Source: an uncultured candidatus Porisulfidus sp. (GTDB lineage Bacteria > Pseudomonadota > Gammaproteobacteria > Poriferisulfidales > Oxydemutatoraceae). From it: 64,000 nt of DNA. Of the stretch, positions 58,587 through 63,383 are shown in pieces. The stretch covers positions 704,001 through 768,000 of the forward strand of contig OZ244052.1 in the NCBI GenBank assembly GCA_965215125.1. The letters are read 5' to 3'. The notes under the pieces are model-generated. The model was given only the letters and a program-made list of their open reading frames with translations. It made no database searches and had not been told where the DNA came from. Each line of letters starts with the position of its first letter. Within the stretch, counting starts at the first letter, position 1. Made by a program: the position numbers and the translations under genes.

Positions 58587-59099
58587 CTAACCGGCACGCC
58601 GGGTTGTACGCGAAGGAATAGTTCTTTGAATTATGGTTTGCTCTTTGCCCGATAATGCCTGCCATTTGAGTTTTATCAGAAAATACTGTCCCGAACGATT
58701 GATGGTCAATTTTCCTTGAGGAAACAACGGCTTTGTAATACCGAACCGCCGACACTGTGTAGATTTTATTGCTGTCTTGCAACCCCATAAAGCCAACGCA
58801 AAGCCGGCGAACTCCCGAGGATTGCACTTTTTAGAGAAACAGTTAGAAGCACCGACACCGGAATTACCGCTACTTAGATAGTATTCGGGGTGCGGACTGG
58901 CGTATAACACTGCAGAAATTTCATTTAGCAACAGACGCGCTTGTAATGAGCGTATTAGTTCTCTCTCGGTGGACAAATTTTTCTGTTGTAACTGCGCAAA
59001 TCCTAATAACGCGATAACCGAGATTGCCAAAGCAAACAAAAGTTCTATCAAGCTAAATCCCGAACACGCGAAACGACGATGAGAACGAGAGTATCGCAT
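58587..59099 (-). CDS. PilV-like minor type IV pilin
   Basis: Prepilin site GFSLIELL, hydrophobic helix, paired Cys; follows the FimT-like gene. Confidence 0.7.
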   Translation of the reverse strand: MRYSRSHRRFACSGFSLIELLFALAISVIALLGFAQLQQKNLSTERELIRSLQARLLLNEISAVLYASPHPEYYLSSGNSGVGASNCFSKKCNPREFAGFALALWGCKTAIKSTQCRRFGITKPLFPQGKLTINRSGQYFLIKLKWQALSGKEQTIIQRTIPSRTTRRAG

Positions 59100-59102
59100 C
59101 GT

Positions 59103-59657
59103 TCAAGACGAACAGTTACCGACATCGGAGGACCGACCGTCGTTTTGATATTGCACCAAACGCACTCTGCCGCTTTGACTGATGACAAGCTCCGAAATGA
59201 CCTGCGTTGATGATCCTGAACAAAGAATAAAACGTCCGTTGTAATTCGCTTTGCCGAAACGATTATAAGTAATGAATCGTGAGAAAGTTTTTGAGCGTAT
59301 GGCAATGTCTCGGCTATCGCCTTGTTGCACGATCAAAAGACGCTCGCCGCGATCCAATTCTCCATTGACAGAATCGGGATGCTCGATAAAAACAAGCCAA
59401 CCTTTTTCGTAAGATATCCCTGCACAATGCGCGCCATCCTCACTACTGCAAATCGTAGTCGCACTGCCGCTGACCATCGCATAGCTACGCGCAAACTCTA
59501 AGGCTTCCCAAAACCGATGCGTATAATGCATAAATCTATTCTGCTTAACCCAGTAAGCAGGCAATGCCAAAACCGAGACTAACAACAAACCGCTAATCGC
59601 CAGCGTAAGCAACAACTCAATCAATGTGAAACCTGCAGTGTCATTTTTTCTATTCAT
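59103..59657 (-). CDS. FimT/FimU/GspH family pilin
   Basis: GFTLIELL, ARSYAM, ICSSEDGAHC, LVISQSGRVR. Confidence 0.85.
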   Translation of the reverse strand: MNRKNDTAGFTLIELLLTLAISGLLLVSVLALPAYWVKQNRFMHYTHRFWEALEFARSYAMVSGSATTICSSEDGAHCAGISYEKGWLVFIEHPDSVNGELDRGERLLIVQQGDSRDIAIRSKTFSRFITYNRFGKANYNGRFILCSGSSTQVISELVISQSGRVRLVQYQNDGRSSDVGNCSS

Positions 59658-59841
59658 ATTGCCATATTAGACGGCGCAAATAGACACAAAAAATTTATCC
59701 GACCAACAAGCCTAAATAAGCGATAAACAAGATTGGGAGCAAATTGCTAGGAATACTATCACTGTACTTGTGCAGAATGCGCGGCAACCACCCCGTCAGG
59801 CTGCGCCTGCCGCCCTAAGGGCAGACAGATATATTAAACCC

Positions 59842-60045
59842 TGGCTTATTTGATATAAGATAAACGCTTAGGCAGATGCAGTGCCTAGGAAGTCGGAGGA
59901 GACACGCTGCAGGACGGACGAGGCATTAAAGCCTGATGGTATGAAAAGCACTCCTCCGGCGTTATGACTATAGAGCTCGAAAGGCAGCTTGGGACTTTAG
60001 ATCTCGTATTCATCTGTTTGGGCGGCGTAGTCATACTTTCCTAAA
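59842..60045 (+). ncRNA. Putative bridge RNA of the IS110 element (ends approximate)
   Basis: Two stem-internal-loop-hairpin domains, 59892-59960 and 59963-60035, whose loop strands match the target and the donor junction. Confidence 0.75.
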
Positions 60046-60727
60046 CTGTGTTTGATACCTAGTATTTCATTCATTAACCAACCCTTATGGAGTAATTTAT
60101 TATGGAAAACAAACAACCCGTCACGATTGGCGTTGATGTCTCTAAAGACACTTTAGAGGCGGCTCTATTATTCACTGATAATAGTTTTGCCGAGCAACAA
60201 TTTAGTAGTGATGCCCAAGGCATCAAACAGTTGTTAGCTTGGACGAGCAAACACCGCGCACAGCAGTGTCGCATCTGTGTTGAGGCGACCGGCGGTCTTG
60301 AACTAGACCTGTGCATGGCCGGCTATGATGCCGGGCATCCAATCATCGTGGCAGCACCGGTGCTGATCGCTAGATTCCGCGACTCGCTCGGCATACGCAG
60401 TAAAACCGATCGCGTGGATGCGCGTATCATCGCACGCTTCGTATTTGCTATCCCGCCTGAAAACAATTGGCAAAAGCCCTCACCGGCTGTGCAAGCTTTG
60501 CGCGACGCACTGAAATGGCGCAGGGAATTAGTCAAGTGTTGTACGATGTTAAGCAATTGCGCTAATACCCTGCGCGATGCGAAGCAAAAAAAGGTGGCAG
60601 CCACTAGCCTGAAGAACCATGAGAAGCAGATCAATAAGATTAATGCCTCAATGGACAAAATCATCGCTCAAGACGAGCACCTCACACAGCTTCACCAGTT
60701 GCTGTGTTCCATTCCTGGAATCGGGAC

Positions 60728-61831
60728 TCAAACTGCGGCTGCCCTGTGTGCAGTACTGGATGATAATACGTTTCGCCATCCAAAGCAACTCGCTGTACGA
60801 TGCCATGACATATTGGACAAATGGGGACAAAAGGAAGCAAGCTGTTGTGCCGGTGTTTTATAGGCTAGACTTTGGTGCGGTCTCCTGAAGTTATACCGCC
60901 CGAGATACTCAAATAATACGTCGTTAAATTGTGCTAAATCGGTCACTAAAATATCCTCATGATGTGCTACAAACTCCTCCTGAATGGTACGGTTAAATCT
61001 CTCGTCTATGGCATTCATTTTCGGGCAACGAGGATAAGTATAACAGTGTTTAATGTTGTGTCGTTGTAGATAAGCCTCGAAGTCGCCGGCAAACTCGCTC
61101 CCGTTGTCGGTCAGTACTTGAGAGAGGTTGCCGGGGAATACCGTGTCCACCAATCTTGCGAATGTCGCAGCATTTTTACTGTGGGCGCGTCGGCAGGTAA
61201 TGGCAACGGCAAAACGGCTGTAGTGGTCAATCGCAGTGAACAGATAATAGCGTGTTCGATTAACGAAATAATGGATAGTATCCATAGCCACGCAGTGTCC
61301 GGGAAATTGCGCTTTGGCATCTTTGCTGAGACGGTTGCGTGGTTGAGAAGTCTTGCATTTGTGTTTTCTTTTAGAGAGTTTAGGGGGCGAACAGCGCATG
61401 TTGTCGGATGCATCGGCAATCAACCGTGCAATGGTGCGCGGCTTCGGACACTGCAGTTCGCGTGCATCACACCACGGCTTTAAGAAGTAATAAATCTTCG
61501 GCGCACCCATATTCGGATAGCTGTGTCGCAGTCGCCTAATCTCATCGCTGATGTGAGTAGACCAATTACGGCGACGATGCTGCCGAGGTGCTTTACTTGC
61601 GTCTCGCAAAGCGGATACACCGCCCTCGTCAAAGCACTTTTTCCAGCGGTATAGGGTGGAACGGCTCACCCCGACAAAGTCTTGGGTTGCGTTTAAGCCG
61701 TGTTTGTTCCAAAATTCTAATGCATTAAGTTTTTGTTTGGCATCTGTTGCCATCATAGCCTCCGTTTTGTTGGAAAAAGAGGCTATTTTATAAAAACCTG
61801 TAATGCGGTAGCCGATGTGCTGGTTTTGCAT
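60728..61831 (-). CDS. IS481-family DDE transposase (HTH + integrase core)
   Basis: HTH GVSRSTLYRWK; VAMDT, LTDNGSEF, PKMNAIDERFNRTIQEEF, YNFRRPHQSL. Confidence 0.92.
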   Translation of the reverse strand: MQNQHIGYRITGFYKIASFSNKTEAMMATDAKQKLNALEFWNKHGLNATQDFVGVSRSTLYRWKKCFDEGGVSALRDASKAPRQHRRRNWSTHISDEIRRLRHSYPNMGAPKIYYFLKPWCDARELQCPKPRTIARLIADASDNMRCSPPKLSKRKHKCKTSQPRNRLSKDAKAQFPGHCVAMDTIHYFVNRTRYYLFTAIDHYSRFAVAITCRRAHSKNAATFARLVDTVFPGNLSQVLTDNGSEFAGDFEAYLQRHNIKHCYTYPRCPKMNAIDERFNRTIQEEFVAHHEDILVTDLAQFNDVLFEYLGRYNFRRPHQSLAYKTPAQQLASFCPHLSNMSWHRTASCFGWRNVLSSSTAHRAAAV

Positions 61832-61934
61832 GTCGGCTACTTTGATTTAAGAGGTATTTTTCCACTAGGAAAAGTACTTTTCCTAGTGGAAAGATTAGGT
61901 TCTAAAGAGTCCAATATGTATCTGGCATTGTACA
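60794..61934 (-). mobile_element. IS481-family insertion sequence (1141 bp)
   Basis: TGT...ACA ends; imperfect TIRs of about 25 bp (TGTACGATGCCATGACATATTGGAC / TGTACAATGCCAGATACATATTGGAC); CTCGC duplicated at 60789-60793 and 61935-61939. Confidence 0.9.
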
Positions 61935-62342
61935 CTCGCCGCCTATATCGGCATCACGCCCAAGCACAAGCAATCCGGCAACTGCGCATCGCCCACGCCC
62001 ATCTCTAAACAGGGCAATGCCGACCTGCGCACCCTCCTATTTATGGCAGCACTCTCGGCACGTCGGCATAACCTAACCATCCGTGCATTTGCCGACCAAT
62101 TAAGTCGGCGGCGTCCGGAGTTAACTAAAAAGCAGATTATTGTTGCTTGCGCTCATAAGCTCACGCGTATTATTTATGGGGTCACCACGCACAAGCAACC
62201 GTTTGACACGAATTATTGTTGAGCATTTGCGTCCTAAATCGATACTCACAAAAGGAGATAAAAAATGAATAAAACGGCTTGATTTTTAATAAGGCATCAT
62301 GCCAGTCCGCCCCTACAAAGGAGGGAAATGTACCATCATTAG

Positions 62343-63383
62343 TCACTTAACTTCAATTTTTCCCGAGTCTAGATTACTCAAGATTCCGATGGGGGTTGCT
62401 TTTTCAAAACCTTTCTCTAAGAGTAAGTTCATTACTTTCGGTATAGCCGCCGGTGAGCAAGCGATGAGTAGACCGCCGTTGGTTTGAGGATCGGTGAGTA
62501 GGGTTTTGATTTTCTTCGCTTTAGCCGATAAATCTACATCATGGCGGCAATGTTCCCAGTTGCGGATGCCTGCGCCGGTGCTAATACCGTTCGTTGCCAA
62601 ATCTACGGCTTGTTCAATCAACGGGATATTATTCATAACAATGGAGGCTTGCAGTTTTGACGCTCGGCACATCTCCAGTAAATGGCATAATAATCCGAAC
62701 CCGGTGACATCGGTCATCGCATGCACCGACCCCAGCCTTGTGAGCTCGACACCGACATCGTTCAGTTGGCTTGCATGCTTTATCAAGATTTTGTAGCCTG
62801 CTTGATCAAGTTTGTTTTGTTTATAAGCAGCTGCCAATACGCCGATGCCCAGCGGCTTGCTCAATAGCAAGACATCGCCGGATCGTGCCGTGCTGTTCCG
62901 CTTAATATTACTAGGATGCACCAAGCCACAAACCGAGAGACCGTAGAAAGGTTCTTTACAGTCTATGGAGTGTCCGCCTGCCACCGCAACACCGGCACGA
63001 TTACAGCTTGCACTACCGCCCTCTAATATTTGTGCTATCACCTCCGTTGCCACTTTATCGGTCGGCATGCCGAGTATGTTTAATGCCAAAAACGGTTTGC
63101 CACCCATCGCATAAACATCGGATAATGCATTGGCAGCGGCAATGCAACCGAAGTCGAAAGGATTATCTACCGGAGGTGCGAAGAAATCGGTTGTCGCAAT
63201 CAATGCCTGTTTGGAATTAAGTTTATAGAGAGCTGCATCGTCGAAAGTATCGCTACCCGAAATGAGTTGCAAGTCGGATAATACAGGGATATTTTCCAGC
63301 AATTTACCGAGTATATCCGGAGAAATTTTGCATCCGCATCCGCCGCCGTGAGATAATGCCGTTAATTTGAAGTTTTGAGTCAT
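62343..63383 (-). CDS. selD: Selenide, water dikinase (Cys form)
   Basis: HGGGCGCKI, TTDFF, NALSDVYAMGG, GGHSI, TDVTGFGL, DPQTNGGLL. Confidence 0.96.
   Translation of the reverse strand: MTQNFKLTALSHGGGCGCKISPDILGKLLENIPVLSDLQLISGSDTFDDAALYKLNSKQALIATTDFFAPPVDNPFDFGCIAAANALSDVYAMGGKPFLALNILGMPTDKVATEVIAQILEGGSASCNRAGVAVAGGHSIDCKEPFYGLSVCGLVHPSNIKRNSTARSGDVLLLSKPLGIGVLAAAYKQNKLDQAGYKILIKHASQLNDVGVELTRLGSVHAMTDVTGFGLLCHLLEMCRASKLQASIVMNNIPLIEQAVDLATNGISTGAGIRNWEHCRHDVDLSAKAKKIKTLLTDPQTNGGLLIACSPAAIPKVMNLLLEKGFEKATPIGILSNLDSGKIEVK

Follow-up and report, generated by a model that had tools for sequence, protein, structure and literature searches.

The stretch of DNA analysed here, hereafter the window, spans 64,000 nucleotides of a complete host genome of 2.22 Mb with 46% G+C, and at 59828-62299 it holds an insertion sequence of the IS110 group, composed of a left non-coding end of 274 nt, a split gene for a DEDD/serine recombinase, and a right non-coding end of 77 nt, the longer end being the one upstream of the gene. 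[quoted passage not shown] An original prediction, made from the letters of the window, had described in the left end a guide RNA with two bipartite loops; all its strings and coordinates are present base for base, and the 275 bp that it gave for the left end became 274 nt once the junctions were read. The features are collected in Table 1.

Table 1. Features of the IS110-group element, its predicted RNA and its target, in window coordinates.
Feature	Position	Strand	Evidence or remark
Left target half GGGCAGA with left CA core copy (59826-59827)	59819..59827	+	5' arm of REP hairpin
Left end of the element, non-coding, 274 nt	59828..60101	+	100% identical in the genome's 4 subfamily-A copies
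-10 hexamer TATATT	59830..59835	+	Promoter formed solely across the circle junction
Predicted bridge RNA, about 200 nt	roughly 59842-60045	+	Encoded in the left end
5' stem-loop of predicted RNA	59843..59868	+	RNAalifold
Closing helix, 5' strand	59886..59891	+	Pairs with 60038-60043; compensatory change at 2 pairs of L023
Target-binding loop module (outer stem, internal loop, inner hairpin)	59892..59960	+	Fold
Outer stem of first loop, GTCGGAGGAG with CTCCTCCGGC	59892-59901 with 59951-59960	+	Fold
Left target guide GGACGGACG	59912..59920	+	Same sense as left target and core; would pair with bottom strand
Inner hairpin of first loop, AGGC-ATTAAA-GCCT	59921-59934	+	Fold
Right target guide TGGTATG	59937..59943	+	Complements top strand CA-TGCCA, one U-G wobble
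Putative target-loop handshake guide AA	59944..59945	+	Inference
Donor-binding loop module	59963..60035	+	Fold
Outer stem of second stem-loop, TATGACTA with TAGTCATA	59963-59970 with 60028-60035	+	Fold
Left donor guide AAGGCAGC	59981..59988	+	Matches right-end terminus AAGGCATC at 7/8; 8/8 in subfamily B
Right donor guide AU-(UC)-AUCUG	60008..60016	+	Discontiguous pairing with CA-GATAT of the circle junction
Putative donor-loop handshake guide UU	60017..60018	+	Inference
Closing helix, 3' strand; approximate 3' limit of structured RNA	60038..60043	+	RNAalifold, pair test
Recombinase gene, N-terminal part	60102..60793	+	PF01548 and start of PF02371; D12, E61, D103, D106
CTCGC duplication copies flanking the IS481-like element	60789-60793 and 61935-61939		
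Inserted IS481-like element	60794..61934	-	rve integrase; ends TGTA..TACA; 5-bp duplication CTCGC
Recombinase gene, C-terminal part	61935..62222	+	Remaining PF02371, with the catalytic serine (Ser243 in the intact protein)
Right non-coding end, 77 nt	62223..62299	+	Contains -35 hexamer, left donor half, right CA core copy
-35 hexamer TTGATT	62279-62284	+	Right non-coding end
Left donor half AAGGCAT	62291-62297	+	Within right non-coding end
Right CA core copy	62298-62299	+	Within right non-coding end
Right target half TGCCA (remaining REP loop) with REP hairpin 3' arm GTCCGCCC	62300..62320	+	Junction, empty site

Regarding the insertion site, the element interrupts the loop of a REP hairpin, GGGCGGAC-ATGCCA-GTCCGCCC. 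The empty target that had been reconstructed for it, GGGCAGA-CA-TGCCA, does exist: in a genome of the same genus, the orthologous locus (L052, about 2300-2325) reads ...TAAGGGCAGACATGCCAGTCCGCCCC... with nothing inserted, and contigs from two public runs join 59802 to 62298 likewise, the short side of this joint being only 20 nt. Because of this uninterrupted site and of the contig joint, target and CA core are facts rather than guesses; junctions and empty site also show that insertion leaves no duplication besides the CA. All the copies of the genome (9/9) lie inside the same REP hairpin context with CA at both junctions, and another 42 copies of the target hairpin, with varied loops, are left unoccupied. 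The hairpin (window 59760-59827, and around 62300-62330) belongs to a longer repeat unit that has more than 40 copies in each of three same-genus genomes and is tandemly duplicated at the orthologous locus of G036.

As for the recombinase, it contains PF01548 (E 5e-21) and PF02371, and residues 8-321 of the intact protein align with the solved structures of ISCro4 (PDB 9t56, E 1.2e-44), which is the best match in spite of a distant sequence, and of IS621 (8wt6, E 2.1e-43); D12, E61, D103, D106 and S243 fall on D11, E60, D102, D105 and S241 of IS621, and all five catalytic residues are kept. In the window, an IS481-like element (ORF 60728-61831, - strand, an rve integrase with HTH domains) interrupts the gene after residue 231 and before the catalytic serine, and for this reason the window copy is non-autonomous; its RNA module is intact and identical to that of the intact copies. 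The original prediction had envisaged an assay with a repaired recombinase; the repair is needless given that intact copies exist elsewhere in the genome.

The genome carries eight complete copies of the left-end RNA module, plus about nine fragments. Subfamily A comprises two intact elements, both 1326 bp long and encoding a recombinase of 324 aa, and the genome has two composites, namely the window copy and a second one at G000:C1:297990-300461; subfamily B counts four elements, with recombinases 66-71% identical. Movement of the window copy could occur only with recombinase from the two intact copies, and the second composite suggests, from its sequence, either that the 2.47-kb unit was mobilised in trans or that the insert was copied by gene conversion. 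Forms of IS110 elements that carry cargo or excise partially have been described in 2026 preprints. It is conceivable, though less likely than not, that the RNA module is genuine while the window copy is an inert fossil, which never moved after its gene was broken and whose sister composite arose by gene conversion or duplication: the gene is interrupted before Ser243, and gene conversion between IS copies does occur in this lineage, as the chimeras described below attest. However, the composite of 2472 bp recurs at a separate REP site with different flanks, only 2 SNPs apart, and in both composites the inner IS lies at one and the same base, flanked by an identical 5-bp duplication, whereas the IS481-like element, present in 9 full genome copies of which 7 are identical, has 8 different 5-bp duplications at its 9 sites; moreover, the recombinase that mobilisation in trans would require could come from the two intact copies, whose left end is identical.

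Elements related to that of the window occur in three other genomes of the genus, with protein identities of 96-97%, 66-68% and about 60%. Within the order, 4 of 52 other genomes matched the recombinase at E <= 1e-30, these being the three same-genus genomes and G041, from another family and with 32% identity; the class-wide sample gave no match at E <= 1e-50 in 399 other genomes, and none was found in metagenome contigs by an alignment scan or an exact 25-nt pattern scan. A wider protein scan of genome contigs returned only three near-identical copies, with near-identical elements in a Candidatus Oxydemutatoraceae MAG. As these scans found few relatives or none, the covariation set described below is limited to four genomes of one genus.

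The two stem-loops of the original prediction are those of the minimum-energy structure computed by RNAfold for 59885-60045, with an MFE of -53.3 kcal/mol and z = -2.40 (4/200 shuffles were as good); the whole left end folds less distinctively (z = -1.2), and the opposite strand reaches -38.8 kcal/mol (z = -1.18), 14.5 kcal/mol worse. In the RNAalifold consensus, a 5' hairpin is accompanied by a closing helix and by two stem-loops, both of which contain an internal loop as well as an inner hairpin. Conservation of the stems among homologues had been set out as a check on the prediction, and the stems are kept: across 8 distinct sequences, 99.1% of the cells of a 42-pair structure are paired, versus 36-47% when the partners are slid. 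Covariation within the stems is scarce, with compensatory change in just 2/42 pairs, both in the closing helix of L023, a result that 15/500 shuffles equal; the stems are near-invariant among homologues, and the variable columns fall in the proposed guide strands. Six of the 42 stem pairs are G-U, where the opposite strand would have A-C; these pairs and the poorer fold of the opposite strand fit an RNA read from the + strand.

The tested structure omits three RNAalifold pairs, between AGG of the left donor guide and CUG/CCU of the right donor guide, which likely arise because each guide addresses the core. Long-range pairs that would prolong the closing helix (59873-59882 with about 60045-60055) were rejected, as they are not kept in L023. 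Rfam 15, searched over the region 59000-63000 with E up to 1, gave no match to the RNA; the sole match was a microRNA family inside the inner IS, where a perfect hairpin near the end of the IS (window 61857-61894) produced a weak hit, E = 0.94, that was taken as spurious.

Regarding transcription, the -35 and -10 hexamers stand at opposite ends of the integrated element, and joining of these ends in a circle is predicted to create a promoter, TTGATT, 17 nt, TATATT, that scores 9/12 by promoter-scan criteria; the corresponding one of subfamily B scores 10/12, with TTGACT as -35. In this arrangement 15 nt separate the end of the -35 from the right terminus, and the -10 starts at nt 3 of the left end, as in IS621. 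In the integrated state, the promoter scan upstream of the RNA found no promoter-like site and no -35; one promoter-like site lies just before the start codon of the recombinase, at 60074-60103.

Turning to the guides of the window copy, the left target guide forms with left target and core 6 Watson-Crick pairs and 2 G-T wobbles, with 1 mismatch over 9 positions, the very count given in the original prediction; equally, TGGTATG proves to be the reverse complement of CATGCCA with one wobble, as had been claimed. In the second loop, the left donor strand as first proposed, AAGGCAGCT, is found at 59981-59989, and ATCTG, the core-side part of the right donor guide, at 60012-60016. An alternative left donor guide, GAGGCATTA (59920-59928), outscores the proposed one; it was rejected, being a strand of the inner hairpin stem of the first loop that varies in L023 with the donor unchanged. 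The putative handshake guides give a mixed picture: the first A of the target loop is pairable with donor position 7 (T) and unpairable with target position 7 (A), and UU of the donor loop is pairable with target positions 7 and 6 (A, G) and unpairable with donor position 7 (T). Measured against the handshake rule of IS621, the first positions of the window copy agree; the second positions, and the donor-loop base of L023, disagree.

Among 2000 mononucleotide shuffles of the left end, 34% reach the observed match for the left target guide, 6% for the right target guide, 4% for the left donor guide and 25% for the right donor guide; none of the 2000 reaches all four jointly. In a single sequence the guide matches have no significance on their own, and it is the comparative data that lift them above chance.

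The comparison set consists of 28 elements for which both junctions were read; they come from four genomes, all of the same genus, and have 11 distinct left ends. All are kin, and the counts that follow therefore exaggerate their independence. Left out were copy I of the source genome, whose RNA region is partly deleted, L025, a member of another family, and 7 of the 17 G035 matches; L047 was swapped for a longer cut of the same copy (H). The CA core is present in 28/28 elements, and both right guides end in UG.

Covariation of the guide segments with the flanking targets had been put forward in the original prediction as a check; the right target guide does covary with its target, and the right donor guide with the start of the element. 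The right target guide has four alleles, which follow four target variants: TGGTATG stands beside CA-TGCCA or CA-TATCA, TTGCATG beside CA-TGCAA, TAGCATG beside CA-TGCTA, and TAACATG beside CA-TGTTA. This guide is completely paired, by Watson-Crick or wobble pairs, in 25/28 elements, and in 24/28 no other allele of the four pairs as well as the element's own; for the other four (L021, H, L041 and L036), another allele would pair better with their site. As for the right donor guide, ATCTG accompanies elements that start with GAT and ACCTG those that start with GGT in 28/28 cases, with the core part 5/5 paired throughout, and the switch tracks the second base of the element, from A to G. The left donor guide pairs at 7/8 positions, and its sole mismatch, at position 7, is gone in subfamily B of the source genome; the left donor half is invariant, so that this guide offers no covariation test.

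The left target guide is less regular. At position 4, guide and target change together (C with C, A with A), and at position 7 they do so in L023 alone; position 3 carries an A-C mismatch throughout subfamilies A and B. The guide of subfamily C has only 5 Watson-Crick pairs and 1 wobble out of 9, and by a hand count it would pair just as well with the A-type target as with its own, or better. Judged from these alignments, the left target guide appears as the weak point, with a moderate fit. Occupancy of the REP hairpins gives a weak signal in the same genome: with A-type guides, pairable loops are found in 4/5 insertions vs 11/42 empty hairpins (Fisher p = 0.03), and with B-type guides in 2/3 insertions vs 7/42 (p = 0.10).

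Two elements of the set are natural chimeras. L037 (G000:C1:1998255-1999576) joins an A-type left end to a B-type recombinase, its first 400 bp being A-type (99-100% identity) and the remainder B-type (97-100%); L030, from G036, is the reverse, with a B-type left end and an A-type recombinase, and the breakpoints lie at about 400 bp and about 200 bp from the left end, respectively. RNA module and recombinase gene have thus been recombined between subfamilies. The sites of both elements pair fully with the guide of their own left end (with one wobble in L037), and less well with the guide typical of their recombinase type; since they fit the left end and not the recombinase type, target choice follows the RNA module.

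These data bear on the proposal that the left end is merely the promoter and 5' leader of the recombinase gene, that the resemblance of its loops to guides is due to chance or shared ancestry, and that the recombinase reads DNA directly. The promoter-like site before the start codon would suit such a leader, as would the non-significant matches in a single sequence and the limited covariation of the stems; yet four alleles of the right target guide track four target variants, the right donor guide tracks the second base of the element, the chimeras follow their left end and not their recombinase, and the protein is homologous to two enzymes solved with bridge RNA (PMC11208158), which makes a plain leader most improbable. 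It is just as hard to credit that the guide-like segments act as DNA, namely as subterminal sites for binding or pairing, with the covariation reflecting recognition at the DNA level. Covariation alone fits RNA and DNA alike, and the segments lie less than 190 bp from the element end, but the G-U pairs of the stems and the U-G wobble of the right target guide work solely in + strand RNA, the junction promoter is positioned to transcribe precisely the guide region, and homologous systems use RNA (PMC11208160).

Owing to the homology of the recombinase, the empty site, the fold, the covariation across 28 copies, the two module swaps and the IS621-like layout, 59828-62299 is very probably an IS621-type element of the IS110 group, whose left end would encode a bridge RNA of about 200 nt. 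The original prediction of such an RNA, with target loop followed by donor loop, a CA core and a REP target, is supported; the programmable tool that it also saw in the element is a candidate. By analogy with the known systems, transcription, RNA-protein binding and catalysis would proceed as follows. In the excised circle, right and left ends would abut over one CA and form the sigma-70-type promoter, from which the bridge RNA would be transcribed; this would fold into the 5' hairpin and the two stem-loops, joined by the closing helix. The target recognised would be the loop of the REP hairpin. In the second internal loop, AAGGCAGC would pair with the right-end terminus (AAGGCAT-C), and AU..AUCUG, discontiguously, with CA-GATAT at the start of the left end. 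Finally, the RNA-bound recombinase, by means of its DEDD residues D12, E61, D103 and D106 and of S243, would swap strands at CA, duplicating only the CA.

The likeness to IS621, for which a natural copy from an E. coli plasmid (L051) was used, extends to most of this layout. The two elements have in common the DEDD and serine recombinase with all five catalytic residues (those of IS621, and its structure in complex with the bridge RNA, are described by Hiraizumi et al. 2024, PMC11208158), the long left end upstream of the gene, a dinucleotide core without further duplication, a REP target, and a promoter rebuilt over the circle junction with identical geometry, including the 17-nt spacer. In both RNAs, 5' hairpin, target loop and donor loop come in this order, with the four guides in the same order; the left target guide has 9 nt, the right target guide ends on the complement of the core, and the left donor guide has 8 nt. 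The distance from the left target guide to the end of the right target guide is 31 nt here and 30 in IS621, and the left donor guide follows the left target guide at 69 nt here and at 73 in IS621. The right donor guide even shares the IS621 lead-in CGUAUU and the 2-nt skip, being AU-UC-AUCUG here and AU-UU-GCAAG in IS621.

The two elements also differ: protein identity is about 32%; the core is CA instead of CT, the second T of which is described as 'almost invariant' among IS621 relatives (PMC11208158); the left end has 274 nt rather than 191, with a longer 5' region and the closing helix; the natural pairing of the right target guide covers 7 nt, as opposed to 4 nt in wild-type IS621; and the REP belongs to another family, with insertion within the hairpin loop. 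A covariance model built from this element family (R1), narrow with its effective sequence number of 0.87, scored the left end of IS621 at 3.2 bits (E = 3), and found no significant match in the IS621 locus or in the 32%-identical relative.

Among other elements of the group, ISPpu10 from Pseudomonas putida has all its insertions at a repeated intergenic sequence with a GC-rich stem-loop, which acts as a second specificity determinant beside RNA pairing (bioRxiv 10.64898/2026.03.19.712850). The target is likewise a GC-rich hairpin here, and by analogy it could compensate for the imperfect left target guide. The seekRNA elements of the IS1111 group are RNA-guided DEDD transposases too, with natural reprogramming among relatives (Siddiquee et al. 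2024, PMC11187229), and they differ by their subterminal inverted repeats and by a non-coding region that follows the gene, whereas here the long end is upstream and the right end has 77 nt. Durrant et al. 2024 (PMC11208160) predicted such RNAs for 85.7% of the elements of the IS110 group, and bridge RNAs, their covariation with targets and their natural reprogramming are already published (PMC11208160, PMC11187229). The system is of a known kind, and what distinguishes this member is the different core, an unusually clean allele series within a genus, and the two natural module swaps; a literature search did not find the phrase 'CA core' in connection with IS110, and this element or such cores may still stand in the supplementary tables of Durrant et al.

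The known mechanism of bridge recombinases, which are under development as programmable tools for DNA insertion, excision and inversion, is unchanged by these findings. To it, the element adds a distant orthologue, about 32% identical to IS621 and with another core dinucleotide, together with a small experiment of nature, the reshuffling of guide alleles, target variants and recombinase types within one genus; it also adds genomic evidence, in the form of an empty site, relics and a composite, on how such elements behave in an uncultured bacterium. More tentatively, and with rather less chance of holding true than of failing, the genus might carry a clade of IS621-like bridge recombinases that natively use a CA core, with RNA modules interchangeable between recombinases about 70% identical, and that move a 1.1-kb passenger in trans. 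If so, the four guide alleles found in nature would already form a series for retargeting, and if the preference for CA lies in the protein, the sequence space for bridge editing would be wider.

Finally, the genome contains relics of the left end, limited to its first 45-100 nt, at G000:C1:521889-521933, 2109565-2109612, 1402490-1402587, 1981293-1981353 and 1633295-1633322, some of which lie directly between the halves of a REP; elsewhere, in two further genomes, a full element is immediately preceded by a partial left end (L028 and L036). One relic break follows GAGGAGA-CA, which is the best left-target-like CA site of the left end (rank 1 of 11), and another follows GTAGATG-CA, at about rank 7 among such sites; in sequence, these relics look like products of aberrant or half-matched excision, then re-insertion. 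Two degenerate left-end-like sequences, at G000:C1:670314-670390 and 1334539-1334592, have 77-84% identity with differing guide regions, and may be relics of further subfamilies.
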